This document shows, piece after piece, positions 1 through 38,885 of a stretch of DNA of 64,000 nucleotides. The DNA lies in NCBI GenBank assembly GCA_947499005.1, contig CANMML010000018.1, forward strand, positions 6,325 through 70,324, in the 5' to 3' direction. A program made the position numbers and the translations under genes. Source of the stretch: an uncultured Aquimarina sp. Its GTDB lineage: Bacteria; Bacteroidota; Bacteroidia; Flavobacteriales; Flavobacteriaceae. Under the pieces are notes generated by a model. It made no database searches. It was given only the letters and a program-made list of their open reading frames with translations, and was not told where the DNA came from. Numbering within the stretch: position 1 is the stretch's first letter; each line of letters opens with the position of its first letter.

Positions 1-1875
1 ATGTACTTCACTTATATTTCCGTTAAATAAAGATTTTGCAGTTCTAAGAAAAGGATATGTAGAAGCATTACTGGTTTGGTAATTTATTTTAAAAGCGAAT
101 AAATCATTGCCTAGATTTGATAGTGGATCATTTATTTGCTTCAACCAACCTCGAACATTATAACTATAATCTATTTCTTGTAAAGGGTTTTGTTGTGTGT
201 TACCTACAGACTTCTGTTCTAATTGTCCTAATTCATCATAAGTATTAGATGTAATTAATTGGTAGGGTTCATTATTGATTTTTTGTTTTTGAGTCAAAAC
301 CCTTCCCATATGATCATAGGTGAATTCATCAATTGTTATGATTGTAGGTTTGTTTTGATAGGTATGCCTGTGTTCTGTTTTTAATACTTTTCCTGCAAAA
401 TCATATTTAGTAAGTGTAATATCTTTACTATTCAAAAATTCATTTTCACTGTAGATGTAAATAGGTCTTTGTTTTGTATCATAATAGGTTGTCGTTGTAA
501 TCCAATGATTAGTTTGCAATACTTTAACCTTATTCCCTGTGGAAAGTCCTTTAACTTGATTTCCTTTTTGTGGGTGGTTGTCTTTGGCTACTGTTTGTCC
601 AAAAACTGATGTAGGGATAGTATGTGTAGGTTGACTAAATGAATAATTATCATAATAATTGATAGTATGCACTTTTATGTCATTTGCTTTAGGTAACGCA
701 TTATTAGAATAGTTTATTGAAACTCCATTGATTGTAATTGGATTTTCTAGATGCTCTTCAAACATAACAAAGGAAGGGTTATTTGTACTTTCAGAAATAA
801 AAGAGCTAGGTACCGAATTATCCCAAACGCCGGTATAAACTACTCTTCCAAATACATCATACTTCGTGAAAACCCAAGGCTGTCCACTTTGTTTTGTCAA
901 TACAGGTTGATCTAAATAGTTATAGACGATATATTCTCTATCCTTACCAGGAATTCTTTTTTCTATTAATCGATTGTGATTGTCATATCGATATTGATAG
1001 CACAAGTCATTTAAAATGTTAGATGTTATGGGGAGAAATGTATGTACTTTTGGCGGGATGACATAAGTTAAATTTCCAAAGTCATCATACACGTAATGTG
1101 TATCGTGAGGGGAATTATCTTTAAAGGTTCTTTTTAGTACGACTCGATCTTGTAAGTCTTTATATTCATGAGAAGTATGATTGTTTAAATCTGAGGGTTT
1201 CCAATTTTCATCTTTGATTATTGTTTTAACTAATGTATTTGGTTGATAGTTTCCATTTTTTACTAAATTAGGCACACCACTGCTATTCTTAGAAACATTA
1301 AAAAGGATGACATTGGTATAGGAATTAGTTCCATAGTCAAACTTTATGGTATGATCACTATCAGATGCGGGGTTTGCTTTCCAATCTTTACCAGGTGCAC
1401 CTGTTTCCAATACACGATTAAGTGGTGAGTCTTCAAATACTTGTTCTGTATAGGGATTTACCTCAGCTGTGGGAATATTAACAAAATCCTCGGGGTATTT
1501 GTTTTTGTAAAATCCTTTAGTAGCATTTTTTAAAGCATCGTGATTTCTATAGCTTCCTACTGTATGGTTTGATTTATATGGTAAAAACTGTTTTGTTTGA
1601 CGTCCAAACTCATCATATTCGATATGAGTCACTAAATCTTTTTTATCTGGTGAAGCCTTAATCGCTATTTGCTGTTTGGGTCTTCCTAGTCCATCGAAAT
1701 AGGTAACACTTTCAATGACATCGGCATTAGATGTTGGGGTGCCTGCTTTTTGATAGGCTTTGGTGTGAATATAGTTTTCACTATCACTTAGGCTTGGCGC
1801 TTGATAATCATTTTGTGCATTAAGGTTCGAAAAACAGAACAATGATAGTGCTAGAAATATTAATGAATTTTTCAT
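1..1875 (-). CDS. DUF6443-domain RHS repeat protein (TcC-like), N-terminal 625 codons, runs off left edge; absent from ORF track
   Basis: Manual translation from ATG at 1875: MKNSLIFLALSLFCFSNLNAQ (Sec signal) ... SVTYFDGLGRPKQQIAIKASPDKKDLVTHIEYDEFGRQTKQFLPY (DUF6443-type); the same frame at the window edge reads ...SLFNGNISEVH, a typical Bacteroidetes RHS motif. Confidence 0.85.
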   Translation of the reverse strand, partial: MKNSLIFLALSLFCFSNLNAQNDYQAPSLSDSENYIHTKAYQKAGTPTSNADVIESVTYFDGLGRPKQQIAIKASPDKKDLVTHIEYDEFGRQTKQFLPYKSNHTVGSYRNHDALKNATKGFYKNKYPEDFVNIPTAEVNPYTEQVFEDSPLNRVLETGAPGKDWKANPASDSDHTIKFDYGTNSYTNVILFNVSKNSSGVPNLVKNGNYQPNTLVKTIIKDENWKPSDLNNHTSHEYKDLQDRVVLKRTFKDNSPHDTHYVYDDFGNLTYVIPPKVHTFLPITSNILNDLCYQYRYDNHNRLIEKRIPGKDREYIVYNYLDQPVLTKQSGQPWVFTKYDVFGRVVYTGVWDNSVPSSFISESTNNPSFVMFEEHLENPITINGVSINYSNNALPKANDIKVHTINYYDNYSFSQPTHTIPTSVFGQTVAKDNHPQKGNQVKGLSTGNKVKVLQTNHWITTTTYYDTKQRPIYIYSENEFLNSKDITLTKYDFAGKVLKTEHRHTYQNKPTIITIDEFTYDHMGRVLTQKQKINNEPYQLITSNTYDELGQLEQKSVGNTQQNPLQEIDYSYNVRGWLKQINDPLSNLGNDLFAFKINYQTSNASTYPFLRTAKSLFNGNISEVH

Positions 1876-1885
1876 GGCTCTTAGT

Positions 1886-4800
1886 TTAGTTTTTGTAATT
1901 GTATTGGTTTTCCGAAATAACATGCCCTTCATTATCTTTTACTTGGTGTAATCGATTATGGATATCATAGGTATAAGAGGTTTTATACCCACTAGGATCT
2001 GTCATTGTTGTCATCCCAATTAAAGGATCGTAGGTATAGATAGTAACCATAGCGTCTTTTAAAGCAATATGATTTCTAATTTCATCTAGTTTGGTTAACA
2101 AAGGGATTTCTGCAGCGACGTTGGTGTCATCATCAGAAAGGTTTATGGCTTCATTGAAAAGCCCAAGGTGACCATTGCCACCTTTTAAAGTAGTAGGTAA
2201 TGAATTATAAGTGGCATTCTCAATCTTGGCAATTAGATGTTCTCCCTCGTAACCCCAAACATAGACGACATGAATGCCATTTTCTCGTTTTAGTTCTCGG
2301 GGGTTGCCGTAATTGTCATAGTGAAGGTATGTTACTTGTTTCTTTAGCCCATTATTATTCGTTGCTGTACTGATACCACTCAATTGGGTGATTCCTCCAA
2401 AAATCCCATAATGCAGACGCTCGATGGTAGTACTACCATTATAGGTAGTTTCTGTTTGTATAGGAGTAGCAGGTTGGTAGTCTTCTCCTTGAAATTTTAA
2501 TCGTTCAATGGCATTAAATTCAGCTTCTGTCAATGGGCCTCCTAAAGGCAAAGTATTTTCATCAGTAATATCATCGGGGTAGTGCACGACAGTTTCAATA
2601 TTATCACCTTTACTAGTGGTTACCGTTGTTTTTGTAGGTTGGTAACTTTTGTCGTTATTATACTCATAAGAAGTGGTTGTTACTATTGGGTTTTCTCCAT
2701 TAAGGTCATAAGTAGTATTTGTGGTTAGATCCATATGCCACCATTCACTGTGGATTTTGTAGTCGGTGAATTTAGTTCTTCTTATATCGTGTTCTCTAGT
2801 TCCATCACTGCCAAAAGTGGGCATATCATTACCGTTAAATCTCATGTTTAAACCGTAGGTGTAAGTATCTCTATTATTACGAGAATAAAGGTTTTCAACG
2901 CGGTGAATTGTATCTCCATTAGTATTGAAACTTTCTTGTAATTCTAATTGACCATTTTCTAAATGTTTATCATTAGGTGAATTTCTAGGATCCGAAGCTA
3001 ATGTTTCAAGTTTGTTTTTATAGTGATATATTGTTTTTCCTAAATTTTCCCCGTCACTATTTTCAGTCGTTACTGTTACTTGGTCATATCCTATAGATTG
3101 ACCATTAGCAGAGGATCCCATAGGCGTAAGAGGTCTTGGCCATGAAAATAGCTTTTCTACAGAATAGTGATCATATATTCCATTAATACCTATATCAGAC
3201 GTAGGAATATTATTATAAAAATGATCATGTTCATAATTATAGAGTATCGGAGCGAGTAATTTCCCTGAAGACTGTTTCGTAATGCCATTGTCTCCTGTAT
3301 TAGGTATTTTATATTCTCCGGTGTAATCATATATTCTTCTTGCTAGTAAATCATTATTTGTATCATAGCTAGAGATTGAAGCTATTCGAAGTCCACCACC
3401 TTTTTTAAAATAAGGGTTTGGCTGAGTTACTTTAGCTATAGAATAACCTAAACTAGCACTATTATAGTCATAATTTTGGTTATTAAAATTTTCTATTTCT
3501 AAGTAATAAGTCCCAGGTAATAATAAGATTTTTTTACTTGGCTTATAAGTTCCAATATTAGTTGTATGGTTGTAAATAATATAGCCTATTTCATCTCGAA
3601 AATTTTTATTATAGCTAATGGAAAAGATAGGTTCCATATTTGCATTTTTCAAAACCCCTTTTACTGTATAAAATTTAGAAAAATCATTAGTGCTAAAAGA
3701 GAAGTTTAAAGAGACTACACTTGTTTCTGAAATATGGAACATTTGTATTGGTATCTTTGAATCATTTGGTGGAAGTATTGTAAATCTTGATTTTGTAGAA
3801 CCTATTTTATTATCTATTACAAATGTACCTGAATAAGATCCATCAAATTCAAATTTTACTTTTCTTTTATCAGAACATGGAGCTTCCGAACAATTAGAAT
3901 TATAATAACCTAAATGCATTGACTTGAAGATGTCGTTTGAATCTACATAATCTGTAAAAAAATTATCATAAACGTTCCTGTAGTCATTAATTTCAAAATC
4001 GAAAATTGTTTTTCCTTTAGTAGGGTATTTTATTTCTTTCAAGCAATATTGCTTAACTCTGTTACTGTCAGCTTCATGAAGAAATTCTTGTATCTCGTGT
4101 GTTGGGTATGTAGAATATTGATCACTTTCAGAATAAGAAAATGATTTAATATCATTGAAATCTTCAGCGAACCAATTAGAATTATTTATAGAGTATGTAT
4201 AATCAAGGTTACTAGTTATGGAACGTTGATCTATAAAAATATTAGGGTTTACAGCATTATTAAAATAACCCCAAGAGTCAAATTTTTCAGTCTCTTTACT
4301 ATAAAAAGGACCAGCATCTTCTGTATAATAGAATTCATGTGCAGGTTTGTATAAGGTATCCTCATCTACTATATTGTATTCTCTGAGGCTAGTTAAGCAT
4401 AGTTTCCAATATAGATATCTTTGTGAAGAAGGTATGTTCGTTTTTTTATTCAAGTATTTGTAAGAAAACTTGAACCCTTTTATAAGCCTATCATGTTTGT
4501 TATAAATTTCTAAATAAGATAGTTTATTTGAGTTATTAGACTGGAGGTCATCTCTTTTACTGGTCTTAAATATTACTTTACTTCCTTTAAAAACAATACT
4601 ATCAAGTACTTTTGGGTAGCTTATACTTTTTGACCATATTTGGGAAGCATTACCAGACCCAGCTAAAAGATGCTGAGCAACAAATATAGAACTACAATTA
4701 TTATTGGGGCTAAAAGGAGAAGGGCAATCTATTGTGGGGTTTAACAATTCACCTTCTTGATTTTTGACAACATGTCCAGTAGCCATGGATAATGAAGAAT

Positions 4801-5647
4801 TTATCTTTTTTGTACTCGTGATAGGCCCTTCTCTTGAATAATAAAAATCTACTTCATGACCAGTACTAGATTTTATATTGGATAAATTGTATCCATTTAT
4901 TGAGTTACTAGAATTTTGAAAATTGTTAGTTGTCTCCCCCCAACGGTTAGTTATTTTTTCTTTTTCATTAAAAGTATATTCCAATCCATTTATATCAAAG
5001 GATTTGAACCCTTCGTTATTTGTTGTGATTTCTTCTTTATTATTTTCAATATTTGATAAAAATTTTAAGCCATCCGTTTGTTTAACAGAAACACCCCATG
5101 GGAAATCATTGAATATAAATTGACCTGAATAATTCAAGAAATTAAAAAAATAAAGATCTGGATGGAAATCACGATAGATTTTATGTTCCCCAGTTTTATC
5201 TATGTATTGATTTTTTTGATTTTCAGTGAAAGAACTATTCTGTTTATTCGCTTGGGTTAACTCTATTAATTCTTCTGCAAAATGAAGCCCTCCATCTCTT
5301 AATCGTGCATCAGAGCCGTAGTCATCGTAACCTTTCACTTGTTTACTAATACTACCTCCCGCATTCAATGACCATCCAAGCCCAACCCAAGTAGCTTCTT
5401 GATCTGTTTTAATACCTGAAGCATGATAACTAAGACTAATGGGAACTTCTATATCTCCCGATTTTATAGTGTAAAGAGGTATCGAAATACTTGGTACTCC
5501 CGTGTAATGCCCGACTGGGTAATCACCGTATTTTTGAAATTCTTGAGTATTGGGCGCTAATGGAGTTAAATTTTCAAAAGCAGTGTGTTGTGCATTTAAT
5601 ACAGACGCTAATACAAGAAAACTGAGGATAGTTAGAAAATGCTTCAT
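1886..5647 (-). CDS. Secreted YD/RHS-repeat protein with SpvB/TcB-like N-terminus, no toxin tail
   Basis: Signal peptide; YTGVPSISIPLY..ISLSYHASG..VGLGWSLNAGGSISK; GGGLRIASISSYD; C-terminal YD repeats YTYDPLIGMTTMTDPSGYKTSYTYD..NQYNYKN; stop 10 bp upstream of the DUF6443 gene. Confidence 0.8.
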   Translation of the reverse strand: MKHFLTILSFLVLASVLNAQHTAFENLTPLAPNTQEFQKYGDYPVGHYTGVPSISIPLYTIKSGDIEVPISLSYHASGIKTDQEATWVGLGWSLNAGGSISKQVKGYDDYGSDARLRDGGLHFAEELIELTQANKQNSSFTENQKNQYIDKTGEHKIYRDFHPDLYFFNFLNYSGQFIFNDFPWGVSVKQTDGLKFLSNIENNKEEITTNNEGFKSFDINGLEYTFNEKEKITNRWGETTNNFQNSSNSINGYNLSNIKSSTGHEVDFYYSREGPITSTKKINSSLSMATGHVVKNQEGELLNPTIDCPSPFSPNNNCSSIFVAQHLLAGSGNASQIWSKSISYPKVLDSIVFKGSKVIFKTSKRDDLQSNNSNKLSYLEIYNKHDRLIKGFKFSYKYLNKKTNIPSSQRYLYWKLCLTSLREYNIVDEDTLYKPAHEFYYTEDAGPFYSKETEKFDSWGYFNNAVNPNIFIDQRSITSNLDYTYSINNSNWFAEDFNDIKSFSYSESDQYSTYPTHEIQEFLHEADSNRVKQYCLKEIKYPTKGKTIFDFEINDYRNVYDNFFTDYVDSNDIFKSMHLGYYNSNCSEAPCSDKRKVKFEFDGSYSGTFVIDNKIGSTKSRFTILPPNDSKIPIQMFHISETSVVSLNFSFSTNDFSKFYTVKGVLKNANMEPIFSISYNKNFRDEIGYIIYNHTTNIGTYKPSKKILLLPGTYYLEIENFNNQNYDYNSASLGYSIAKVTQPNPYFKKGGGLRIASISSYDTNNDLLARRIYDYTGEYKIPNTGDNGITKQSSGKLLAPILYNYEHDHFYNNIPTSDIGINGIYDHYSVEKLFSWPRPLTPMGSSANGQSIGYDQVTVTTENSDGENLGKTIYHYKNKLETLASDPRNSPNDKHLENGQLELQESFNTNGDTIHRVENLYSRNNRDTYTYGLNMRFNGNDMPTFGSDGTREHDIRRTKFTDYKIHSEWWHMDLTTNTTYDLNGENPIVTTTSYEYNNDKSYQPTKTTVTTSKGDNIETVVHYPDDITDENTLPLGGPLTEAEFNAIERLKFQGEDYQPATPIQTETTYNGSTTIERLHYGIFGGITQLSGISTATNNNGLKKQVTYLHYDNYGNPRELKRENGIHVVYVWGYEGEHLIAKIENATYNSLPTTLKGGNGHLGLFNEAINLSDDDTNVAAEIPLLTKLDEIRNHIALKDAMVTIYTYDPLIGMTTMTDPSGYKTSYTYDIHNRLHQVKDNEGHVISENQYNYKN

Positions 5648-7308: not shown

Positions 7309-9252
7309 TTAAAAACTTTTTAATGTTTTATTAATTTCTTCGTTAATTAATTTTGAGAAATCTTCAATGGTTAAACTTCCAATTTCTTCCTTGTTTCCAT
7401 GTTTGCGTACTGAAACTTTACCTTCTTTCTCTTCGTTTTCTCCAATGATGAGCATATACGGGTATTTGTTCATCTCAGCTTCACGAATTTTCTTACCTAT
7501 AGTTTCATTACGATTATCTACAAGGCTGCGAATTTCGTAATTTTCTAATTGATTTAAAACTTTTTCCGCGTAATTTTCGTATTTCTCACTCAAAGATAGT
7601 ATAATTACTTGCTCCGGCATTAGCCAAAGTGGGAAATTACCTCCAGTATGCTCTAAAAGAATAGCAATGAAACGTTCTAAACTTCCAAAAGGAGCACGAT
7701 GAATCATTACAGGGCGATGCATTTCGTTGTCTGAACCTTTATAATGAAGGTCAAAACGCTCTGGTAAGTTATAATCGACTTGGATCGTACCTAATTGCCA
7801 GCTTCTTCCAAGGGCATCCTTCACCATAAAGTCAAGTTTAGGTCCATAGAATGCAGCTTCACCAGATTCGATTACGTAATCTAATCCTTTTTCTTGTGCA
7901 GCATTAATAATAGCTTGCTCTGCTTTTTCCCAGTTTTCAGTATCACCAATATATTTTTCTGGTTTTTCTAAATCGCGTACAGATACCTGTGCTGTAAAAT
8001 TATCGAAACCTAAAGATCCGAATACATATAATACAAGATCAATTACATCTTTAAATTCTTGATCTAACTGATCTGGTGTACAGAAAATATGTGCGTCATC
8101 TTGTGTAAATCCACGAACACGAGTTAAACCATGTAATTCTCCACTTTGCTCGTAACGGTAAACGGTACCAAATTCAGCATAACGAATTGGTAAGTCACGA
8201 TACGACCAAGGTCCACTCTTGTATATTTCACAGTGATGTGGACAGTTCATTGGCTTAAGTAAAAACTCTTCACCATCGGCAGGAGTACTGATAGGTTGAA
8301 AACTATCCTCTCCGTATTTAGCATAGTGCCCCGAAGTTACATACAATTCTTTTTGACCGATATGCGGAGTGACTACCATCTCATACCCAGCCTTTTTCTG
8401 TGCCTTCTTTAAAAATTGCTCTAAACGATCGCGTAAAGCAGCTCCTTTTGGTAACCATAACGGTAATCCTTGACCTACACGTTGTGAAAAAGTAAATAAG
8501 CCTAATTCTTTACCTAGCTTTCTATGGTCACGGCGTTTAGCTTCTTCCAGTAATTCTAAATATTGTTTTAACTCTTTTTGCTTAGGGAACGAGGTTCCGT
8601 AAACACGAGTCAACTGCTTGTTATTTTCATCACCTCGCCAATAGGCCCCGGCAATACTCATTAATTTTACAGCTTTTATATATCCTGTATGAGGTAAGTG
8701 TCCCCCACGACATAAATCGGAAAAATCATCATGATGACAGAAAGTAATGGTACCGTCTTCAAGGTTTTCAATTAATTCAACTTTGTATTCGTTTCCTTGT
8801 TCTTGATATTTGGCTAAGGCGTCTACTTTAGAAACAGCTTCCAATTTAAACTCATGCTTACCTCTAGCGATTTCTAACATTTTGTCTTCAATTTTCTTGA
8901 AGTCTTTATCAGAAATAGTTTGTTCGCCGAGGTCAACATCGTAATAAAATCCATTTTCAATAGCAGGACCTATACTTAATTTTACTCCAGGATATAACTG
9001 TTCTAATGCTTGTGCTAATACGTGAGCTGATGAGTGGCGAAAAGCTTCCTTTCCTTCTTTATCATTCCAAGTAAATAATGTCAAACTACCGTCTTGGGTT
9101 AGGGGAGTACTGGTCTCGACAATGGTATTTTCAAACTTTGCTGAAATTACGTTTCGCGCTAGTCCCTCACTAATGCTTTTGGCTACATCCATTGGTGTAG
9201 CTCCATTTTCAAATTGTTTTACCGAACCGTCTGGTAATTTAATATTTATCAT
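7309..9252 (-). CDS. thrS: Threonine--tRNA ligase
   Basis: TGS domain, HSSAH editing motif, [33 protein letters not shown]. Confidence 0.99.
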
Positions 9253-9268
9253 AAATAATCTAAAAAAT

Positions 9269-9295
9269 TAGCTTTCGACTACAAACTCGAAGCTA
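9269..9295 (-). promoter_or_regulatory. thrS 5' leader hairpin with tRNA-Thr-like UUGUA loop
   Basis: Minus strand UAGCUUCGA-GUUUGUAG-UCGAAAGCUA, at -17 to -43 from the ATG. Confidence 0.55.
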
Positions 9296-9310
9296 TGTTT
9301 AAAACGAAGA

Positions 9311-9318
9311 CAAATATA
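9311..9318 (-). promoter_or_regulatory. Bacteroidetes -7 promoter element of thrS
   Basis: TATATTTG on the minus strand matches TAnnTTTG, 59 bp upstream of the ATG. Confidence 0.7.
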
Positions 9319-9436
9319 GAGTAAAGTTATTAGTAGTTATAGGTTTTTTTGCATCAGAAAGTCCTCTGTTTTTAGGGGATTTAAATATAGTAAAGAGTTT
9401 AAGCTAGATTACTATGATTTATAGTAATGACTTTAA

Positions 9437-11710
9437 TTATTCAATAATTAGTTTTGTTGTTTTAAATTCATTTTTAATAAAATAAATACCGCTGGATAAA
9501 TTAGTAATGTCTAGTTCTAATTCAGAATTAGAAACATTTTTTGTCTCTATTAATTGACCAAGAACATTAAAAATATGAATAGAACCTGCTTTTAGATTTT
9601 TTAAAGTTATAATAGATGTGTTTCTAACAGGGTTAGGGAAAATGATAATGTTGTTATTGCTATTAGCTTCAAATTGGTCATTGGAAAGGTTATTTGGACT
9701 TTCAATTTGCCAATTGAAGGTCTCCCAAATATCCACGGCATTACCTTGAGGAAATAATTTGGTATTATCGATGCGCCATGGAGCATTTACCCATTTATTT
9801 GTCAAATAGCTAAACAAAGCCACTTGACCATTACCAAGGTCTTCCCATTTGAATCTATTACATGCTCTAAAACCATTGTTGTTAGCTAATAAAGCTTGAT
9901 TAGTTGAAATTCCATTGGGGTGAATAAATTGATTTGTTTTTAAAGAAAACAGCATGACTCCGCCTTTAGGGTGTCGTTGTACCATAAATTTTTCATCGTT
10001 TTCTACAGTAGTTTTGTTTGCAATTAGCTCATTATCATCGTTAACACTAACAAAACGTTGATCTCCGCCAGATTTTTGCAGCGAAATAAGTTCTCCTATT
10101 GGAGCATTATCCGGATTTGAATCTCCGCGTTCAAAGACACTGATTTGCCCCATGTGAAGTTCCTTGCCTTCTCCCTTTAGCTGAATTCTAACTACGCTAC
10201 CTTCGGTATCTATATCATAAGTACTTCCTAAGGAACTAACTTCTTCAAATATGGGAATTGACCTAAGCAGGTTACCTCCACGTTGATCATAAATTTCTAT
10301 GTTAAAGTCTTTTAAGCGATTTTGACAACAATCTTGTCTGTTCCATATTTTTATTTGTCCAATATTCACTTGGTTTTCTAAATCTACTTCCCACCATGGA
10401 TCTGTTTCTTCTGTTGTTTGATTAAAGCTAGTGACGTTATTATCTAGAGCTCTTTCAGCTCCTCTATCTGATACTAACGTACTAGATTGGAAAGCTGGTT
10501 TACCATTAGCTATGTCTGTTCCTGAAGGGAATATTAAAGGAGCATCCTCTAAGATGACAGGGTAAAAAGTATTTCCACTGGGAGGAGTAGAGGTCAATAA
10601 CCTTGGCTCAACATACTGATCAAAGACAAATACACTTCTTCTAGATGAAAATAATGAAGAATTTCCTCGACCACTTGCTCTGTTATTAAAAATGATATTG
10701 TTTTCCCCAGGTTCTTCATGTCCAAATCTTATGTTTCCAGTCGCAAAAGCGGCCCATGATCTCCATTGTTCACTTTTGACATTGTTGTTTTCAACAAGGT
10801 TAAATCCATCATCACCATTGTGAAAATTGACATCGACTTCAATATCACATTGAGTAACAACATTGTATTTTGCTCCTAATTGAATTGCAAAATGTCGTAT
10901 ACGTCTAACTCTTTCATTTGTGATTAGGTTGTGATTTCCTGTTATATCGTAATAAGCATTACCACCTCCGCCTCGGTTGAAAGCTCCATCAATAAAATTA
11001 TTTCGAAATGTATTGTGATCGGCTCTGATTTCTACAGGATCAGTACCTGCATTTTTGAAATTACAATTATCAACCCAACAGTTTTTTGTGGTTCCTAGCA
11101 TTTCTACAAAGGACACATACATATTATCTATACCATTAGGATTGTTATTGAAACACATATCTCCACAAAAGGCATTACGTGGGACATTACTGTCATCATA
11201 CAATTTGATATCCATTGGAGGTAGATATTCGAAGCTTAAATTTTCTAAAGCAGCGTTTTGAATATTAGTAAATTCTGTTGAAGTAATAGTATTGTTACCA
11301 TTAGAGCGAATAGTTACGTTAAGCTTAACCCCTTCTTTACTTTCTCCTCGAAGAATGATATTTGATTTCATCCTTATAGGTTTATCAATATCATATACAC
11401 CATTTTTGAGAAGAATAACAAATAAATCATTATTGGTCAGACTATTATCGATAGCTTGTTGAATTCCATCAGTATCAGTAGGATCAATTTCTATTTGAGG
11501 TTGATTGATGCATTGTAGTGGAATTCCATCTTCTACACCAGCCTTTTGCCATTCAATCATAAAAGGGTAGGCAGGGTCATTTTTAGTGCTATCAAATTGT
11601 ATACCTTGGTCCCCAATCTGTTGCGCTTTCAAAGTGTTGAAGCACACTACGATTACAAAGAATCCAAAATATTTTATAAGGGAATACCTTTTTTTTATTG
11701 ATCTTTCCAT
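9437..11710 (-). CDS. T9SS-secreted parallel beta-helix protein (candidate polysaccharide lyase) + F5/8-type C/fucolectin-like module + fascin-like beta-trefoil + CTD
   Basis: Signal peptide; IQQAID..VILLKNGVY..IILRG beta-helix start and Asn-ladder repeats; DIANGKPAFQSST..PWWEVDL..IKIWNRQDCCQNRL; IIIFPNPV..LSSGIYFIK..KLIIE CTD. Confidence 0.75.
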   Translation of the reverse strand: MERSIKKRYSLIKYFGFFVIVVCFNTLKAQQIGDQGIQFDSTKNDPAYPFMIEWQKAGVEDGIPLQCINQPQIEIDPTDTDGIQQAIDNSLTNNDLFVILLKNGVYDIDKPIRMKSNIILRGESKEGVKLNVTIRSNGNNTITSTEFTNIQNAALENLSFEYLPPMDIKLYDDSNVPRNAFCGDMCFNNNPNGIDNMYVSFVEMLGTTKNCWVDNCNFKNAGTDPVEIRADHNTFRNNFIDGAFNRGGGGNAYYDITGNHNLITNERVRRIRHFAIQLGAKYNVVTQCDIEVDVNFHNGDDGFNLVENNNVKSEQWRSWAAFATGNIRFGHEEPGENNIIFNNRASGRGNSSLFSSRRSVFVFDQYVEPRLLTSTPPSGNTFYPVILEDAPLIFPSGTDIANGKPAFQSSTLVSDRGAERALDNNVTSFNQTTEETDPWWEVDLENQVNIGQIKIWNRQDCCQNRLKDFNIEIYDQRGGNLLRSIPIFEEVSSLGSTYDIDTEGSVVRIQLKGEGKELHMGQISVFERGDSNPDNAPIGELISLQKSGGDQRFVSVNDDNELIANKTTVENDEKFMVQRHPKGGVMLFSLKTNQFIHPNGISTNQALLANNNGFRACNRFKWEDLGNGQVALFSYLTNKWVNAPWRIDNTKLFPQGNAVDIWETFNWQIESPNNLSNDQFEANSNNNIIIFPNPVRNTSIITLKNLKAGSIHIFNVLGQLIETKNVSNSELELDITNLSSGIYFIKNEFKTTKLIIE

Positions 11711-11825: not shown

Positions 11826-12680
11826 TTAGTTTACAATAACCTTTTTGGTAGCAGTACTACCTGTAGAAGATGTAATTTCTAATAAGTAAAAACCAGAAGG
11901 TAGACCGCTTACATCTATAGTATCTACATTACTCGTATTATTAATATATACTGTTTTACCCAAGGTGTTTTTTAAACTTACACTAGTAATATTTATATCT
12001 GAACTATCAATGTTTAAAACATCACTAGCTGGATTAGGGTAAATTTTAGTGCTGTTTGCTAATTCAAAATCTTCTGTAGATAATGTACTCATATTTCTGG
12101 TTGTAGCTCTAAATTCTACTTCTCCAATCAAGTCGAAATTACTATTTGGTACAGTCCATGTCTCTGCAAGTATCAATCTGTACTCTCTATAACCTTTCCC
12201 ATCATTTCCAGATGAATTTAAAGGTACAACAGTTGGGTTTAATTCAGTCGCACTTTGATCAGCAAAAGAGAAATTAACAGTACTTACTGTTACCCATGGA
12301 TCAGAACTAGTTGGTCTAGCTTCAACCCTCCAAACAGAAGTGAAATTAGCTTGTACATAGAATGTTATTTGATCAAGGTTTACAGGATTCAATCCAGACT
12401 CAACTACAAAATCAAACCAAGAATCTCCTTCATTCAATACCTCTCCACCAGTATGTCGGGCAGCAAAAATATCAGTAGTATTCCTCATGGTAACACCATT
12501 AAACCATCGTTGGTAAGCAGTTGCTTCCATATTTGCAATACCTCCTTGACCAGGCAATTCAAAAACAGTCACATTATTTGTGTCTTGATTTAATAAAATA
12601 GGCCCAGGAGCGATTTCTATCTGTGCAAAAGATGAAAAAGAAAGAAAGGATGTTGTAAAGAGTAAAAATAATTTTCTCAT
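11826..12680 (-). CDS. Small T9SS-secreted protein, single putative discoidin/CBM-like domain + CTD
   Basis: Signal peptide; YREYRLIL..IGEVEF discoidin-like ending; KIYPNPASD..LPSGFYLLEI..KKVIVN CTD. Confidence 0.7.
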   Translation of the reverse strand: MRKLFLLFTTSFLSFSSFAQIEIAPGPILLNQDTNNVTVFELPGQGGIANMEATAYQRWFNGVTMRNTTDIFAARHTGGEVLNEGDSWFDFVVESGLNPVNLDQITFYVQANFTSVWRVEARPTSSDPWVTVSTVNFSFADQSATELNPTVVPLNSSGNDGKGYREYRLILAETWTVPNSNFDLIGEVEFRATTRNMSTLSTEDFELANSTKIYPNPASDVLNIDSSDINITSVSLKNTLGKTVYINNTSNVDTIDVSGLPSGFYLLEITSSTGSTATKKVIVN

Positions 12681-12864
12681 AATAATAGTGTTATTAATTA
12701 GATTTTTTTGATTTTAAAAAGTGTAGTTAATTTCTATATGCTGTCTAAAAACAGTCAATGATAAACGAAATAGTCATTCGTTTTTCTCTAGAAAATAATT
12801 CACTTTTTTTCTTTCAGTAAATCTATAATTAGAATATTTTTTTTGTGAGGGATGGAAAGATCAA

Positions 12865-13047
12865 AAAGTAGGGGGAAATCGTTTTATTTTAAAATTAATT
12901 GTGTAAGTATTTGAAATACAGTGTGTATTTTGTCTGAAAGATTAGGGGAGGAAATGATATATATCACTCAAACTCTTTTTGATTTTGCTCTTAAAGCAAT
13001 CAATCTTGTAAATTTCCATAGGATAAAAAATGATTTCCCCCTACTTT
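12865..13047. repeat. Perfect 16-bp inverted repeat pair in a divergent promoter region
   Basis: aaagtagggggaaatc (12865-12880) and gatttccccctacttt (13032-13047), 151 bp apart; degenerate third copy near 12942-12956. Confidence 0.85.
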
Positions 13048-13116
13048 CTGGCGTATTTGCACCAGTGTAAAAACACATTATCAGAATATTTTTACATACT
13101 ATAAATTTTATGTAAA

Positions 13117-15651: not shown

Positions 15652-16085
15652 TTTGTATTCTCGATTATTGAATTCAAAACAAATGAAGTTTTTAATTCCC
15701 CTTAGTTCTTTTTAGTAAAGTTGTTATGTAAGTAAAAAAGTTAAGTTTTAAATCAGATGATATCTGATAACAATTAATGCTCTAATAGATTAAATATTTA
15801 TAGATAGAAACAAAAACTAAAAATAGTTTAATCAATCATAGTCGATACTTGTTTTTATCCGTTTTTGGAGCAAGATATTCTGTAGTGAATAGTCTTAAGA
15901 AATATGATTTATAATCATTAATCGTATTGATCTTGTAATCAGATAATTAATGAGTTTTTGTTATTTAAAACTTTGTTTTGTTAATTTTAATTCAATTTTT
16001 TAACTTTTTTTTGACATATTTATAGAATTTGTTTTACGGAATTTATTCAAATAAAAACGATCAACTTACTAATTACTGGCTTTTT

Positions 16086-19000
16086 ATGACAGCAAAACGA
16101 CTAATAATACATTTTTTTGTAGTGTTTACATTACTACAATCTAATGCTCAAGATGCTACATTAAATTTTAGACATTTTTCAACAGATAAAGGTTTATCAC
16201 AACGATCGGTAATAGCAATATTACAAGATGAATATGGGTATATGTGGTTCGGAACTCGATATGGATTGAATCGATTTGATGGACATTCGTTTAAGAATTA
16301 TTACTACAACGCTAATAACGAAAACAGTTTAAGTGATAGCTGGATTAGATCGCTATTTAAAGACAGTAAAGGAAATCTTTGGGTAGGAACAAATAATGGA
16401 TTATGTAAATACGATTACAAGAGTGATCGATTTACTAGATTACAAGAGAGTGGTAAATATTTCAAAGGGAAAATTTTTGATTTAGAAGAAGATACTAATG
16501 ATAACATTTGGATCTCCTCAGATAATGGTTTTTGGAAATATGATACTAATGAAGCTTCTTTTACAAAAATTTTCGAGGAAAATAGTTCAGATTGGTCCGA
16601 GATCATTTTATCATCTATTCAGATATCCAATAATCATTTTATGTTATCGACAGATCAAAACATCGATTTGTATGATATAGAAAACAATACAATTAAGCAC
16701 TATTCTTATCCTCAAGGCAAGTCCCCTAAAAAAGTTAAAAATAATAATACCGAATTATTTGAAGACAAAAGTAATAAGGTATGGCTTGGGTATAGCGGAG
16801 GCTTAGCTTATTTGGATAAAGAGAAGAATGAATTTGTTGATTACCTTTCAAATGATGATCAAAAAATAGTGAATTCATCTGTGAGGAGTATTTATCAAGA
16901 CGATGATTATAACTTATGGGTGGGTACTTACGAAGGTTTGTATTTAATTGATATCGAAACGAAAACGTTTTCGTTGTATCAACACGATGTTGCAGAAGAT
17001 AAAAGTCTCAGTCAAAATAGTATTTATGATATCTATTCTGACACCAGAGGTGATTTGTGGATTGGAACATGGGCTGGAGGAATAAACTATTTAGATCGTA
17101 GTGATCTCGTTTTTTCGACAATTAAAGAAGGAGCAAGTAAGGGCAGTCTCAACTACCGAGTAGTTAGCTCGATTTTAGAAGGGCAAGAAGGTGATTATTG
17201 GATAGGAACAGAAGGAGGAGGTATTAACTATTACAATGCTTCTGAAAAACAGTTTATTTATTATACACATGATCCTTTTGATAAAAATAGTGTTAGCGAT
17301 AATAACATAAAAGCATTACTCAAAGATTCAAATGGAGCTATATGGGTTGGGACTCATAATATGGGAGTAGATAAGGTGACATTGGGTCAATATGGAGAAC
17401 TTCACTTTAAAAACCTGAATTTAAATTCATTAAGCGGAGGCTTGTCAAGCAACAGGACTACTGCATTATTACAGGATTATAATGGCAACATATGGATTGG
17501 AACCAGTAACGGTGGATTGAATCTATACAATCCAAAAGAAGAAAAACTATACCCTATAGATGGTCAGGGAATACTTGGAGTGTCGGTATCTGTAATTGAA
17601 AATTTAGATGATCAATCTATTCTCGTAGGTAGTGATAAGGGGCTTTGTAAAATTAATATCAATACCAATGTTTTAGAAAAAGTAACTTTTAAGAAAAAGC
17701 TTTCGTCATCATATAATTTAGAAACTGTAATAAGTTTAAATGTAATGTCAGCATCGGAAATTTGGATTGGAACAGAAGGTGTGGGGCTTTTTAGTTACAA
17801 TATCCAGAGTGGTACATCGAAACGTTTTGGTAAAAATGAAGGCCTTCCAGATGAAGTTATTTATGGTATAATGCCAGATTACCAAAACAATATCTGGGTT
17901 AGTACTAACAAGGGTATTTCTAAACTAGATACTAAAACATTCACGATTAAAAGTTTTGATGTTTCTGATGGTATCCAGGGGAAAGAATTTAATTATGGAG
18001 CTTCTTTAAAAACAAACAAGGGAGAAATAGTCTTTGGAGGTGTTAATGGATTAACTTCTTTTGATCCAAATAATGTAAGAGAAGATAGTTTCGAACCTCC
18101 ATTACTGATTGAATCTTTAAAGATTAGAAATAAAGGAATCTTAGATTTAATCGATAATTCATCTACAGGTTTAGATTTAGAATACAATCAAAATGATATC
18201 GTATTTAATTACATTACTTTGGATTTCTCGAGACCAACTAAAAATCAGTATGCATACAAATTAGAAGGTTTTGATAGTGAATGGAATTCAGCAGAAAATA
18301 AAAGGTCTGCTACTTATACTAATTTAGATCCAGGTTACTATACATTTAATGTTAAAGCAACTAATAAAGATGGTATTTGGTCTCAGCATCAAAAAAAAAT
18401 AGAAGTGTACATTGCAAAACCCTATTGGGAAACTTGGTGGGCATATTTACTCTATTTGATATTGGCAACAATAATTCTATTGGTTATACGCAAGTATAGT
18501 ATTATTAGAATACGTCAAAAAGCCGAGTTAGAACAAGAGCGCCTTAATCGAGAAGAGGCCGATGAAGTCAATAAGCTAAAACTACAACTGTTTACTAATA
18601 TTTCACATGATTTTAGAACACCTCTTACATTAATCATTGGGCCTCTTAAACAAATTATTGACGAGGGATTAAGGGATGAAATTTTGCAAAAGCGATTAGT
18701 GCGAATGTACAATAATGCTAGTGTAATGTTGCAGTTAATCAATCAATTACTAGACTTTAGAAAAAGTGAAGCAGGACAATTAAAGTTAAAACCGAGAAAA
18801 GAAAAAATTGTTCCTTTTTTAGAAGAAGTTTATGCTCTATTTGAAGAACTAGCCACAGTTAAAAATGTGAATTACATATTTAATACAGGAACAGTAAAGG
18901 ATACTGAGATTTGGTTTGATGCTATAGAAATGAAAAAAGTAATTATTAATGTATTGTCTAATGCATTCAAATTTACACCAGAAGGCGGAGAGATTAGACT

Positions 19001-20171
19001 CCATATTTCTTCGAAGCAATATGGACTTAATCGAAAACTACAAATACAAATTTCAGATACAGGTAATGGGATCAAACCACAAGATATGCCTTACATCTTT
19101 GATCGTTATTATCAACTAGGCCAACAAAAAAAAGTACAATCAGGTACTGGTGTTGGTTTAGCTCTAGCAAAGGATATTGTAGAGTTACATCAAGGAAAAA
19201 TATTTGCAGAAAGTAATGAAGGCTTGGGGACTAAATTCATTATAGAATTACCCTTGGATAATAAGACAAATAATTATAAAGAGGATGTCGAAAATAATGT
19301 AGTAGGTAAAAACGAATTGTACACAAAAAGTGTTAATCCAATGCCAGTAGTGAAATTTGAAAACAATGGAGAAGAGGAGATTTCGCAAAGCATTATAGAT
19401 GAGTTTCTTAAAACATTACTGGTTGTTGAAGATAATCAAGAATTGAGATCTTTTGTGAAGAGTGTATTTATTGATATTTATAATGTATTAGAAGCTCGAA
19501 ATGGAGAAGAAGGTTTGGAAGTGGCTAAAGCTTATGCTGTCGATATTATCATAAGTGATGTAATGATGCCTAAAATAGATGGAATGGAGTTTTGTGAAAA
19601 AATAAAACTGAATCCTATAACAAGTCATATTATTGTCATTCTTCTTACGGCAAGAACTTCCATGAAAAGTCAAAAGGAAGGATATAGAAATGGAGCAGAT
19701 GCTTATGTAACTAAACCATTCGATGTTGAAATCCTAAAAGATCAAGTACATAATTTATTAAAATCTCGTGAACGATTTATTGAAAGATATCGCAAGGAAT
19801 TTATTTTAAAGCCTAAAGAATTGGATTTAAAATCGCCAGACGAAATCTTTTTGAATAAGCTTATTGAGATCGTAGAAGAGAATTTTCTAAACCCAGATTT
19901 GAACGCAACATATTTGGTAAGTAAAATGAATATGAGTCAATCTGTTGTATATAGAAAAATAAAAACGCTAACAGATTTATCAATTTCTGGCTTTATTCGT
20001 TTGACTAAATTAAAACGTGCAGCTCAATTGTTAAGAGAGACAGATATGAATGTTTCTACCATTGTTTTTGAAGTAGGATTTAGTGATTTGAAGTATTTCA
20101 GAAAATGCTTTAGAGATTATTTTAATGATAATCCATCTGATTTCAGAAAAAAGCATCAAAAAGTTAAGTAA
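16086..20171 (+). CDS. Hybrid two-component sensor/regulator (HTCS)
   Basis: Periplasmic Reg_prop repeats (LWVGT/IWIGT), Y_Y_Y (ATYTNLDPGYYTFNVKA), TM, HisKA FTNISHDFRTPLTLI, HATPase GTGVGLAL, REC IISDVMMP, AraC HTH; ATG 16086 preferred over TTG 16029. Confidence 0.95.
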   Translation: MTAKRLIIHFFVVFTLLQSNAQDATLNFRHFSTDKGLSQRSVIAILQDEYGYMWFGTRYGLNRFDGHSFKNYYYNANNENSLSDSWIRSLFKDSKGNLWVGTNNGLCKYDYKSDRFTRLQESGKYFKGKIFDLEEDTNDNIWISSDNGFWKYDTNEASFTKIFEENSSDWSEIILSSIQISNNHFMLSTDQNIDLYDIENNTIKHYSYPQGKSPKKVKNNNTELFEDKSNKVWLGYSGGLAYLDKEKNEFVDYLSNDDQKIVNSSVRSIYQDDDYNLWVGTYEGLYLIDIETKTFSLYQHDVAEDKSLSQNSIYDIYSDTRGDLWIGTWAGGINYLDRSDLVFSTIKEGASKGSLNYRVVSSILEGQEGDYWIGTEGGGINYYNASEKQFIYYTHDPFDKNSVSDNNIKALLKDSNGAIWVGTHNMGVDKVTLGQYGELHFKNLNLNSLSGGLSSNRTTALLQDYNGNIWIGTSNGGLNLYNPKEEKLYPIDGQGILGVSVSVIENLDDQSILVGSDKGLCKININTNVLEKVTFKKKLSSSYNLETVISLNVMSASEIWIGTEGVGLFSYNIQSGTSKRFGKNEGLPDEVIYGIMPDYQNNIWVSTNKGISKLDTKTFTIKSFDVSDGIQGKEFNYGASLKTNKGEIVFGGVNGLTSFDPNNVREDSFEPPLLIESLKIRNKGILDLIDNSSTGLDLEYNQNDIVFNYITLDFSRPTKNQYAYKLEGFDSEWNSAENKRSATYTNLDPGYYTFNVKATNKDGIWSQHQKKIEVYIAKPYWETWWAYLLYLILATIILLVIRKYSIIRIRQKAELEQERLNREEADEVNKLKLQLFTNISHDFRTPLTLIIGPLKQIIDEGLRDEILQKRLVRMYNNASVMLQLINQLLDFRKSEAGQLKLKPRKEKIVPFLEEVYALFEELATVKNVNYIFNTGTVKDTEIWFDAIEMKKVIINVLSNAFKFTPEGGEIRLHISSKQYGLNRKLQIQISDTGNGIKPQDMPYIFDRYYQLGQQKKVQSGTGVGLALAKDIVELHQGKIFAESNEGLGTKFIIELPLDNKTNNYKEDVENNVVGKNELYTKSVNPMPVVKFENNGEEEISQSIIDEFLKTLLVVEDNQELRSFVKSVFIDIYNVLEARNGEEGLEVAKAYAVDIIISDVMMPKIDGMEFCEKIKLNPITSHIIVILLTARTSMKSQKEGYRNGADAYVTKPFDVEILKDQVHNLLKSRERFIERYRKEFILKPKELDLKSPDEIFLNKLIEIVEENFLNPDLNATYLVSKMNMSQSVVYRKIKTLTDLSISGFIRLTKLKRAAQLLRETDMNVSTIVFEVGFSDLKYFRKCFRDYFNDNPSDFRKKHQKVK

Positions 20172-20386: not shown

Positions 20387-21913
20387 ATGAAAAAGAGCTT
20401 ACTTTTTTATTTTCTCTCATGTTTACTTTTTATAGGTATTTCTTGTACTGATGAAGAGTTTAATGAAGGAACAGTCTTAGGGGTTTTCGAAGAACCAACA
20501 GGACTTAATTACCCGACACAATCTAATGCAAATGAATTTGGAGCATTTAGAACAAGCCCTCCTACAGTAGATACAAATGGTTTTACACCTTTTTTTGAAA
20601 TTATATCGATACGTAATGCAGCTGGTGAGACGTTAGATGCTTCTTTTTTGGAAGGTGTAAATATCAGTAACCCAACAACAGAGTTTGTGATTCTTAACGA
20701 AGAAAATACATTTGTGGTTGATGGAGAAAATATAAATCTATTCGAAACCGAAAACTCTTCCCAAGCAGGAGTAATAACTTTTGAAGATAAAAATATGTTT
20801 GGTTTCGATCAATATTTTTTTACGATAAGAGTAACCATAGAGAATGATGGACAGGTTTTGTCAACTACATTTAATGATGCGTTACAGGTAAATTTTAATC
20901 CAGAATTAGTAAGAGTACTAAGGTATTTGCCATTAGCTCAGAATTTAGTTCCAGGTACCACTACTTCATCTACTATTCCAGAAGTTATTCGAGGAAACCC
21001 AGATGTAACTTATTCACTAGGAGATAATACAGATTTATTAACTATAGATGCTAATACAGGGCAACTATCATTAAGATCAGATATTACAATTACAGATAAC
21101 GTAACAATTCAACCAACTGTAATAGCAACAAATAATACACTAAATGAGTCAGTCTCATTTTCTGGAGATCAATTTTTATCATTAGTACTTTCAAATACTC
21201 CTGTAGAATTAATGCCAAGAAGTATTTTCTTCTTTCAACCAACATTTGAAGAGAGAAGCCCTCTATTTGGATTTGCTGTAGATGTGATAACGCCAGGGGG
21301 AGTACCAGATAATAGAGCATGGGAAACAGTAGCGCCATCGCCATTAGCAAATCAAGACGATAATTTGCCAGAGATTGATAATATGGCAATTCAAACGAAT
21401 GCTGTAGTGGCAGGAATGTCTTTACCTCATGAGTCCGATGCTATTTTAACTACACAAAACTTATCTGATTTTGAAGGTGATTTCGATTTGAAGTTTGTCT
21501 TCTACTATCAAAATAGGTTTGTTGAATACTTGAGTGATGGTCGTACACCTACTGAATTAGAAGTTTTTTATGCAACAGATTTTGATGGAACCAATAATGG
21601 AACTGCTAATTGGATGGGAATCAATGAAATTTTATCATGTCAAATTGAAAGTTTAGACGCTACACCATTTATTGGATTACCATACCCTGGAGATCAAAGA
21701 GGCGATGATCCCGATAATAGAAAAGACAGTACAAGAAATGCAGATGGTAGATGGGTTCGCTGTGAACTAGATGTAACGCCTTTTGCAAACGAAGAAAATT
21801 TTACAATCAAATTTAAATACAATTCATTTTTCGAAGGTTCTATTTCTGGAGCAACAGGAAGAGCAGGTAGGTATTTGATTTCCGATGCATATTTCGAAGC
21901 CACAGAAAGATAA
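20387..21913 (+). CDS. Surface glycan-binding lipoprotein (SGBP), Ig-like modules plus DUF5017-like C-terminus
   Basis: Lipobox GISC; directly upstream of susC; EVFYATDFDG..TANW motif. Confidence 0.7.
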   Translation: MKKSLLFYFLSCLLFIGISCTDEEFNEGTVLGVFEEPTGLNYPTQSNANEFGAFRTSPPTVDTNGFTPFFEIISIRNAAGETLDASFLEGVNISNPTTEFVILNEENTFVVDGENINLFETENSSQAGVITFEDKNMFGFDQYFFTIRVTIENDGQVLSTTFNDALQVNFNPELVRVLRYLPLAQNLVPGTTTSSTIPEVIRGNPDVTYSLGDNTDLLTIDANTGQLSLRSDITITDNVTIQPTVIATNNTLNESVSFSGDQFLSLVLSNTPVELMPRSIFFFQPTFEERSPLFGFAVDVITPGGVPDNRAWETVAPSPLANQDDNLPEIDNMAIQTNAVVAGMSLPHESDAILTTQNLSDFEGDFDLKFVFYYQNRFVEYLSDGRTPTELEVFYATDFDGTNNGTANWMGINEILSCQIESLDATPFIGLPYPGDQRGDDPDNRKDSTRNADGRWVRCELDVTPFANEENFTIKFKYNSFFEGSISGATGRAGRYLISDAYFEATER

Positions 21914-38469: not shown

Positions 38470-38885
38470 CAGTATCACCATTTTGTCTTGAGGAGCACCC
38501 ATTAATAGATATTCAATATCATATTTATTCTGAATGTCTAGGGCATTATTAAATAATACTACAAGGTATTTATAAAACAGATATTTAAATGGAATTATAT
38601 AGCCATATTTTGTTATTTTTTAACTTAATTTAGTTTTAAATATGATTAATTTGGCGTAATGAGTGTGTTTTTTGTTTGATAAAATAAATACTTTTATAAA
38701 TGCTGGATCATATCCATTATTAATAACACACAAATAGTTTTATCGCTTTTTTAAGTTAGAATAATAACCAAGAAACAAGGCTGTTTATTAGGCGATATAT
38801 GTATTTCTAACGGTTCATATTTCACAATGAACTTATGTTTACGCATTGTGTACTCAACAACTTAAACTACTCAAAATATATCATT

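Follow-up and report, generated by a model that had tools for sequence, protein, structure and literature searches.

A type IX-secreted beta-helix protein from an uncultured Aquimarina represents an uncharacterised family and may be a hydrolase of sulfated red-algal galactans

On which glycan, and by which chemistry, does a secreted beta-helix protein act when its gene lies at the edge of a polysaccharide utilization locus (PUL)? This question is raised by a stretch of 64 kb from an uncultured Aquimarina sp. (contig CANMML010000018.1 of assembly GCA_947499005.1), which is called here the window and within which all positions are counted. The gene, referred to as the target, is found near a PUL headed by kduI, and the initial annotation proposed that its product is the extracellular endo-lyase that starts depolymerisation for that PUL. 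We favour, tentatively, another reading, namely that the target is an endo-acting glycoside hydrolase (GH), exported via a type IX secretion system (T9SS), which acts on a carrageenan-family sulfated galactan from red algae. By sequence comparison its beta-helix defines a discrete, sizeable and uncharacterised family, which is probably a new family of the glycoside-hydrolase type and possibly a further carrageenase family. We infer the substrate, hydrolysis over elimination and the roles of individual residues from the domain architecture, the modelled fold, the boundary of the family, its conservation and the statistics of its gene neighbourhoods. The target comprises the following features (residue numbers are those of the target protein):

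9437-11710, minus strand: target gene, whole open reading frame (ORF), 757 aa, stop codon at 9437-9439
11624-11710, minus strand: signal peptide, residues 1-29 (…CFNTLKA, cut, QQ), by sequence inspection
10526-11623, minus strand: predicted catalytic domain with right-handed parallel beta-helix fold, residues 30-395, ~365 aa (AlphaFold2, Foldseek)
10127-10516, minus strand: F-type-lectin-like (fucolectin / F5_F8_type_C_2) module, residues 399-528 (Pfam and PDB matches)
9695-10108, minus strand: CBM92 (bacterial fascin-like) beta-trefoil, residues ~535-672 (internal repeats, profile match)
9440-9643, minus strand: T9SS type-A C-terminal sorting domain (CTD), residues 690-757 (PF18962, TIGR04183, PDB 8glj)
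10892-10903, minus strand: RIRH motif, residues 270-273, with R272 and H273 invariant in alignments A1, A2 and A3
10784-10843, minus strand: signature loop IEVDVNFHNGDDGFNLVENN, residues 290-309 (alignment conservation)
10706-10723, minus strand: GHEEPG motif, residues 330-335, with H331 invariant

The signal peptide has a basic N-terminus, a hydrophobic core and an A-x-A-like site, and the alignment of the homologs begins straight after it. Pfam and NCBIfam recognise just two parts of the protein, a F5/8-type-C / NedA-like module and the T9SS CTD. The latter is matched over residues 690-756 by PF18962 (47.5 bits) and TIGR04183 (44.9 bits), and a PDB sequence search matched the C-terminus to the T9SS CTD structure 8glj; with its signal peptide the target thus has the features of a T9SS type-A cargo, and both the CTD and the extracellular delivery via T9SS noted at the outset are backed by these matches. 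All the motifs quoted in the initial annotation were also located: EWQKAGV at residues 53-59, GIP at 62-64, RRIRHFAIQ at 269-277, DVNFHNGD inside the signature loop, and GHEEPG as listed. Residues 30-400 were modelled with AlphaFold2 (AF2) from an alignment of 53 sequences, and the model has the regular coils of three strands each that mark a parallel beta-helix (predicted local distance difference test (pLDDT) 94.8, predicted template modelling score (pTM) 0.93). In agreement with this, Foldseek against the PDB returned right-handed beta-helix proteins only (best E 3.8e-5, template modelling (TM) scores <=0.51, 9-15% identity), so that the beta-helix of ~360 aa seen in the first reading of the sequence stands. 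These matches are scattered over unrelated families, i.e., the alginate epimerase/lyase 8jaz, the polysaccharide lyase (PL) families PL1, PL6 and PL31, the carbohydrate esterase (CE) family CE8 methylesterases, GH28 and GH82.

No family match was obtained for the N-terminal ~370 residues of the target in Pfam, NCBIfam or the PDB. With the isolated domain, PF12708 reached 17.8 bits, which is under its 27-bit cut-off. For the target, PF00295 gave no match at E<=0.1, and a profile of the family run against the PDB sequences matched AlgE epimerases (E 1.6e-6) and GH82 (E 3.7e-4) in the N-terminal cap only. For PL1, PL3, PL6, PL9 and PL31 there was neither a Pfam lyase family match nor a PDB sequence match, and the Foldseek values were E >=1e-4 with TM 0.25-0.41. 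The earlier remark that the beta-helix fits no known family therefore holds across Pfam, NCBIfam and the PDB, the fold matches being generic. An exhaustive HMMER search collected 448 representative clusters (defined at 50% identity) at E<=1e-3 and 160 at E<=1e-30. In a name-bearing profile search, the 99 proteins found were all called 'hypothetical', 'right-handed parallel beta-helix repeat-containing', 'T9SS sorting domain' or 'GH28-related', and their E-values fell abruptly from 1e-48 to 1e-14, which is why we regard the family as discrete. The marine members come from Flavobacteriaceae (Aquimarina, Tenacibaculum, Flavivirga, Tamlana, Snuella), Saprospiraceae, Marinilabiliaceae, Vibrio, Gilvimarinus and Paraglaciecola, and other hosts are Paludibacter, Parabacteroides, Tannerella, Chitinophagales, Verrucomicrobiota and Planctomycetota. 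At least four paralogs are present in Paraglaciecola sp. L3A3, the 1201-aa protein P0021 carries two family domains, a hyaluronate-lyase N-terminal domain is fused to one member, and one match comes from a dinoflagellate (Pyrodinium) transcriptome, probably by bacterial contamination. The modules fused to the family domain are nearly all carbohydrate-binding modules (CBMs), namely CBM96, ricin-B, F5/8-C, CBM6, CBM35 and malectin, and they point to a carbohydrate-active enzyme.

Across 45 domain sequences the invariant residues are W212, G222, Y253, L262, R272, H273, V284, D293, N295, F296, H297, D300, G302, L305, W319, H331, N338 and N343, and D241, E291 and E307 are near-invariant. The family signature can be written as Y253, R272-H273, D293-x-N-F-H297-x-x-D300 and H331. 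Its parts (Y253, R272/H273, the D293-D300 loop and H331) are placed 19-31 residues apart, i.e., about one coil, and in the AF2 model the signature loop is a long, well-ordered, non-strand segment between coils (DSSP, domain residues 258-275, pLDDT ~98), so that, as judged from the model, the conserved motifs may line one substrate cleft. The His and Arg residues of RIRH and FHNG had been put forward as catalytic candidates, and R272, H273 and H297, being family-invariant, are indeed plausible active-site residues. No clade departs from this polar signature, and a single catalytic mechanism is therefore expected for the whole family.

The neighbourhoods of the homologs were then compared, using 80 family loci with 10-kb flanks, in which all ORFs were matched with the proteins of the window PUL and with each other. 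Within 10 kb, kduI was found at 0/80 loci and DUF4861 at 0/80; GH88-like genes were found at 3/80 and PL29-like genes at 4/80, a sulfatase at 19-20/80 and SusC at 17/80. In the maximum-likelihood tree of the domain, the target falls in a 16-member clade of T9SS-type proteins of Flavobacteriaceae with 100/100 support. None of the 15 other clade members lies beside PL29 or GH88 genes, and 8 of them lie in carrageenan-type loci, in which the core carrageenan genes dauA, dauB, dauC, dauD and GH127, a kappa-carrageenase-type GH16 and sulfatases are repeatedly found near the family gene.

Three sets of loci account for this association. In Tenacibaculum agarivorans and four related genomes, a GH16 and a divergent family paralog precede the clade member, which is followed immediately by genes for an enolase-superfamily protein and an aldehyde dehydrogenase, and after these by genes for a sulfatase, SusD, SusC and an AraC regulator. 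The enolase-type protein matches 5olc with E 3e-150, versus E 5.5e-39 for the 3,6-anhydro-L-galactose (L-AHG) cycloisomerase 5xd7, and 5OLC is Zobellia DauB, the 3,6-anhydro-D-galactonate cycloisomerase (PMC5698469). The dehydrogenase matches 6pnu (E 4.5e-139), which belongs to the entries deposited in the work on the structure of Pseudoalteromonas DauA, the 3,6-anhydro-D-galactose dehydrogenase (PMC6923384), and the GH16 finds its best matches among kappa-carrageenases. An agarase (L-AHG) reading of the Tenacibaculum locus was considered and replaced, because DauB fits far better than 5xd7 and the GH16 is kappa-carrageenase-like rather than an agarase. In Aquimarina spongiae, a separate lineage whose DauB and DauA are 60% and 51% identical to those of Tenacibaculum, the genes next to the clade member encode LacI, GH127, a sulfatase, a 2-keto-3-deoxy-6-phosphogluconate (KDPG)-type aldolase, 2-keto-3-deoxygalactonokinase, DauA and DauB and together, as annotated from sequence, make up a full core carrageenan system. 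In Aquimarina litoralis and a relative, the neighbours are a double-GH16 T9SS protein, with the Zobellia kappa-carrageenase 5ocr as best match (E 1.5e-58), and sulfatases. The carrageenan linkage of the target clade hence recurs in three lineages across independent Tenacibaculum and Aquimarina.

The Tenacibaculum loci show two further peculiarities. Family members occur there in tandem (positions 8188-9948 and 10001-11416 of locus L089, and also in L010 and L023), the upstream paralog being a 586-aa protein, ~35% identical, with Big_7 and a CTD. In addition, a 517-aa protein with no Pfam match recurs in the five carrageenan loci (L089, 6515-8068), and a relative with 32% identity is also found by the family member of Tenacibaculum sp. 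M341 (L020, 12308-13912); this protein may be a further partner enzyme.

How would the target then act? Carrageenan has no uronic acid, and beta-elimination is therefore impossible there. Hydrolysis is favoured because the target clade is tied to this uronate-free substrate and because uronate-processing neighbours are rare family-wide. In the proposed mechanism, the Sec signal peptide would bring the protein to the periplasm and the type-A CTD would direct type IX export to the cell surface or the medium, where the beta-helix would cleave the sulfated galactan in the manner of the GH82 and GH28 beta-helix hydrolases. Acid/base catalysis could be provided by D293, D300 and E291/E307, and the conserved Arg/His residues could hold sulfate groups. 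The enzyme would be anchored on glycans of algal cell walls by its F-type-lectin-like and CBM92 modules, in which canonical binding residues are partly lost.

Both accessory modules had been recognised in the initial annotation, and the assignments proved sound. The lectin module is matched by PF22633 (52.7 bits, cut-off 27.8) and PF00754 (35.7 bits), and residues ~399-528 match the F-type lectins 3cqo, 3le0 and 2j1r (E 1e-13 to 1e-10). When the fucose-binding motif His…R-x-D-C-C-x-x-R was sought in it, the canonical His was found to be replaced by Gln (FNQT) and NRGDCC by NRQDCC, with the Arg residues kept; fucose binding is doubtful because the His of the motif is Gln in the target. Residues ~535-672 contain three internal repeats of ~45 aa, and the profile of this segment matches the CBM92 structures 7zoh (E 2.8e-6) and 7zoi (E 4.4e-6) as well as designed beta-trefoils, so that the fascin-like trefoil can be assigned on sequence to CBM92, the current name of that module, with a predicted fold. 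An AF2 run on residues 395-690 with a 4-sequence alignment (pLDDT 47) was unusable for the fold. CBM92 was formerly called 'Bacterial Fascin-Like Domain', a WExF motif closes each of its three subdomains, and the family was founded on a kappa-carrageenase's carrageenan-binding module (PMC11039641). In the target, WExF is intact in the third subdomain only (WETF), the first two reading DEKF and CNRF, whereas the closest homologs, P0004 and P0005, retain all three WExF motifs together with FNHT and NRGDCC. This suggests that the accessory modules of the target are eroded in comparison with those of its closest homologs, and that ligand binding may be changed or decaying. The Cgk16A-type CBM92 carrageenases of Wenyingzhuangia aestuarii are flavobacterial and T9SS-exported and, like the target, carry an appended CBM92 and a CTD, but their catalytic domain is a GH16 and that of the target a beta-helix; the carrageenan-binding CBM92 has no WExF site at all, while that of the target keeps one.

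Comparison with the characterised beta-helix families places the target beside, and not within, each of them. The GH82 iota-carrageenases (Alteromonas fortis CgiA, 1h80/1ktw/3lmw) share with it the right-handed parallel beta-helix; they are secreted endo-enzymes with which marine bacteria attack a polyanionic galactan, an activity that for the target is predicted, and, as with the GH82 genes in Zobellia, the gene is often placed outside the core carrageenan PUL. The likeness in sequence is a weak profile match of 1h80/3lmw at positions 71-132 (E 3.7e-4), with Foldseek TM 0.31-0.42; over the catalytic coils there is no sequence similarity, structural alignments give 12-14% identity, and phmmer against the PDB returned no GH82 match. 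Moreover, the target has no counterpart of the GH82 C-terminal domains A/B, and its signature IRH + DxNFHxxD differs from that of GH82. By analogy of fold, ecology and likely substrate class, GH82 is probably the closest functional analogue. The GH28/PF12708 hydrolases (Thermotoga exo-polygalacturonase 3jur) have the same fold and the top query-normalised TM (0.51), and their N-terminal cap motif IQxAID…GGG…L..G.Y is common with the target; some homologs even reach PF12708 and are named 'GH28-related', but the target itself stays below the PF12708 gathering threshold, PF00295 is unmatched, and the order of its conserved motifs differs from that of GH28 (NTD / DD / GHG / RIK). The AlgE-type C5-epimerases and the bifunctional alginate epimerase/lyase (2pyg, 5lw3, 8ja4/8jaz) provide the best profile match in the PDB and the best Foldseek E, and their active-site chemistry is His/Tyr/Asp-rich, like the conserved set of the target. 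Here, however, the alignment is restricted to profile positions ~73-194 (the cap and the first coils) with 11% identity, Foldseek TM is 0.15-0.38, and alginate genes are not among the neighbours of the target. Lastly, the PL29/BT3328 chondroitin-hyaluronan endo-lyase combines a beta-helix with a PF12708-type N-terminus, as the target does, and PL29-type genes share a PUL type with one clade of its family, but neither DUF4955 nor NF058554 matched the target.

We also entertain, with less confidence than the hydrolase assignment itself, that the target clade is a new GH family of carrageenases, a beta-helix counterpart of GH82 unrelated to it in sequence and the fourth beside GH16, GH82 and GH150. 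In that case the ~450 clusters would be poly-specific glycanases for anionic or sulfated glycans that reach into freshwater and gut Bacteroidota, Verrucomicrobiota and Planctomycetota. Ficko-Blean 2017 noted that some species with a carrageenan PUL (CarPUL) have no known carrageenases and may hold new carrageenase families (PMC5698469), and a 2026 review lists GH16, GH82 and GH150 as the only carrageenase families (PMC13514251). GH150 (lambda-carrageenase) and GH118 (beta-agarase), families with no structures, were compared by names only: among ~150 named homologs of the target, none is named carrageenase or agarase. The idea of GH118 was raised by the many agarolytic hosts; the literature gave no fold or sequence information on GH118.

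Several observations weigh against the galactan hydrolase. No dauA/dauB or GH127 gene is present in the 64-kb window, and 7 of the 15 others in the clade occur as orphans amid housekeeping genes. Adjacency to carrageenan genes is no proof that the carrageenan backbone is the substrate, and the family has no characterised member. It is, furthermore, a poly-specific family, because its clades have different partners, including those of the non-marine Paludibacter, Parabacteroides and Chitinophagales, and a transfer of specificity at 60% identity is unsafe; Paludibacter-type loci contain GH52/116-like, MFS and DUF4432-like neighbours, and Phaeodactylibacter loci sulfatases, GFO oxidoreductases and 3-keto-disaccharide hydrolases. 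The proximity of the conserved residues is read from motif spacing and DSSP, and the conserved Arg/His/Tyr/Asp set fits a lyase active site equally. Finally, the target lies beside a uronate-type PUL, and its family is tied to that PUL type twice, via two clades.

The arrangement of this PUL bears directly on the alternatives. Upstream of the target, on the same strand, lies a gene for a 284-aa T9SS-secreted protein (11826-12680, minus strand), which consists of a ~190-aa N-terminal module with no Pfam match and a type-A CTD. The target starts 115 bp downstream of it, no terminator is predicted in the gap, and the two genes are possibly co-transcribed; no homolog of the 284-aa protein was found beside any of the 80 family loci. 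It had been stated that the target is transcribed divergently from kduI. The strands are indeed opposite, but the gene directly divergent from kduI is that of the 284-aa protein. The 284-aa gene and kduI are separated by a 436-bp divergent region, which contains the following element:

12862-12885 and 13027-13050: arms of an inverted repeat, 24 nt, 92% complementary, core GATTTCCCCCTAC

From its sequence, this 24-nt repeat is a candidate operator. The motif that the initial annotation placed upstream of the target as a shared element is thus real as a repeat, but it is located more than 1.1 kb upstream of the target, with the 284-aa gene in between. The idea of a shared operator was rejected, since the repeat core occurs in the 64-kb window only at its two arms and is found neither before the target nor before other PUL operons. 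A sigma-70 scan, with a tool that was not made for Bacteroidota promoters, gave 22 promoter-like sites versus 18 expected, and no terminators. After kduI, the PUL continues with genes for a DUF4861/BT3233-family protein, a hybrid two-component system (HTCS) regulator (16029-20171), a 508-aa protein of no recognised family, SusC, SusD, a GH88-like protein and a BT3328(PL29)-like protein, followed by a tripartite ATP-independent periplasmic (TRAP) transporter, a sulfatase, a GH43, a 672-aa protein and a GH2. The DUF4861/BT3233 family is needed for growth on glycosaminoglycans (GAGs) in B. thetaiotaomicron (PMC8121099). The PL29-like protein has 522 aa and no CTD, and the start of its gene overlaps the end of the GH88-like gene (26895-29686). 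Neither the 508-aa (20387-21913, plus strand) nor the 672-aa protein (36484-38502, minus strand) has a Pfam or NCBIfam match. On its other flank the target is followed by thrS, infC and rplT, so that it stands at the edge of the locus. The locus was found in three marine-metagenome runs, which were of DNA and none of RNA. Farther away, at 1-5647 (minus strand), the window encodes two large RHS-repeat / DUF6443 proteins (1253 aa and >644 aa) of the polymorphic-toxin type, unrelated to the target.

The alternative that survives best, though we hold it unlikely, is that the target works for the neighbouring PUL after all, as a hydrolase or some other glycanase that is not a lyase, on a non-uronate linkage in a complex sulfated heteropolysaccharide. 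It might cut, e.g., a sulfated galactose/fucose branch or backbone segment while the PL29-like and GH88-like enzymes handle the uronate linkages of the backbone. The GH43, the GH2, the sulfatase and the two family-less proteins of the PUL imply a heteroglycan, the target carries a fucolectin-type module, and the family co-localises with this PUL type not only here. Snuella sedimenti, Aestuariibaculum suncheonense and apparently also a Saccharicrinis metagenome-assembled genome have a family member that is flanked on one side by T9SS-exported PL29-like lyases with CBM96 and on the other by an HTCS and a GH88-like gene, whose products are 48% and 59% identical to those of the window. Yet these PUL-embedded homologs belong to another clade, are 36-39% identical to the target and are lipoproteins with no CBMs, and there is no other case of the target clade with this PUL; no shared regulatory motif precedes the target, which is placed at the edge of the locus beside thrS. 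A functional tie of the family to the adjacent PUL type, as read from gene order, is possible. The HTCS/GH88-like/PL29-like arrangement is a conserved marine PUL type (window, 26895-29686; locus L033, 6698-9721 and 15570-16805; locus L038, 4540-9604 and 15678-16907), and the PL29-like enzymes of Snuella and Aestuariibaculum, which are T9SS-exported, have two CBM96 modules.

The endo-lyase of an unassigned PL family, which would use Arg/His/Tyr as base and acid and open the uronate-containing sulfated glycan of a PUL equipped with kduI, DUF4861, HTCS, SusCD, GH88-like and PL29-like genes, appears to us somewhat less probable again. The target adjoins the PUL on the strand opposite to kduI, and the short PL29-like protein of the window, with no CTD where orthologous PULs have a T9SS-exported one, leaves an extracellular enzyme seemingly missing. 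Invariant residues include Arg, His and Tyr, and an alginate epimerase/lyase heads the Foldseek matches, which comprise many PL1, PL6 and PL31 lyases. In addition, a PL14 lyase domain is fused to two family members, many members carry CBM96, whose founding member is alginate-specific, and genes for a GH88 and a TonB-dependent receptor are found close to a Paraglaciecola copy. Against this stand the neighbourhood counts given above, with kduI and DUF4861 absent from all 80 loci and uronate-processing genes absent from beside the 15 clade members, more than half of which are in loci for a uronate-free substrate. The signature invariant in all clades argues for a single mechanism, the Foldseek matches are all weak, with hydrolases and esterases equally among them, the repeat motif does not lie directly upstream of the target, and the PUL already has a BT3328(PL29)-like lyase. 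A kinship of the target to that neighbouring beta-helix (28118-29686, 16 kb away) was also rejected, as hhalign gave 49% probability on generic turns only. The endo-lyase proposal of the initial annotation is thus not supported, and its place by the kduI/PL29-like PUL probably does not mark the target as the lyase of that PUL.

Least probable of all, in our estimate, is a beta-helix that does not cleave glycosidic bonds, be it a CE8-like esterase, an AlgE-like C5-epimerase or a non-catalytic surface adhesin or binding protein: CE8 pectin methylesterases are among the best TM-scores (1gq8, 0.47/0.54), AlgE epimerases are the best sequence-profile matches, in the N-terminal cap only, and the PfbA adhesin is among the Foldseek matches, but the AlgE/CE8 profile matches cover only residues ~70-190, a Tyr, Arg-His, Asp/His/Asp loop and His that are invariant across phyla speak for catalysis and not adhesion, and carrageenan-type and other loci would otherwise have no candidate endo-enzyme, esterase or epimerase substrates not being evident there.

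Beta-helix enzymes that degrade polysaccharides are a known kind; what is new here is a discrete and sizeable family with no assignment in Pfam, NCBIfam or the PDB. For it, comparative genomics provides a concrete hypothesis, a hydrolase of carrageenan or related sulfated galactans, which addresses the carrageenan users that have no known carrageenase. The case also illustrates that PUL proximity can mislead the assignment of function to T9SS cargo genes. If the hypothesis is true, the family would supply the 'missing' carrageenase of CarPUL-bearing bacteria with no known ones and would constitute a new CAZy family; it would provide tools for producing defined carrageenan oligosaccharides, and several hundred T9SS proteins now called 'hypothetical' in bacteria of the marine carbon cycle would be better annotated.

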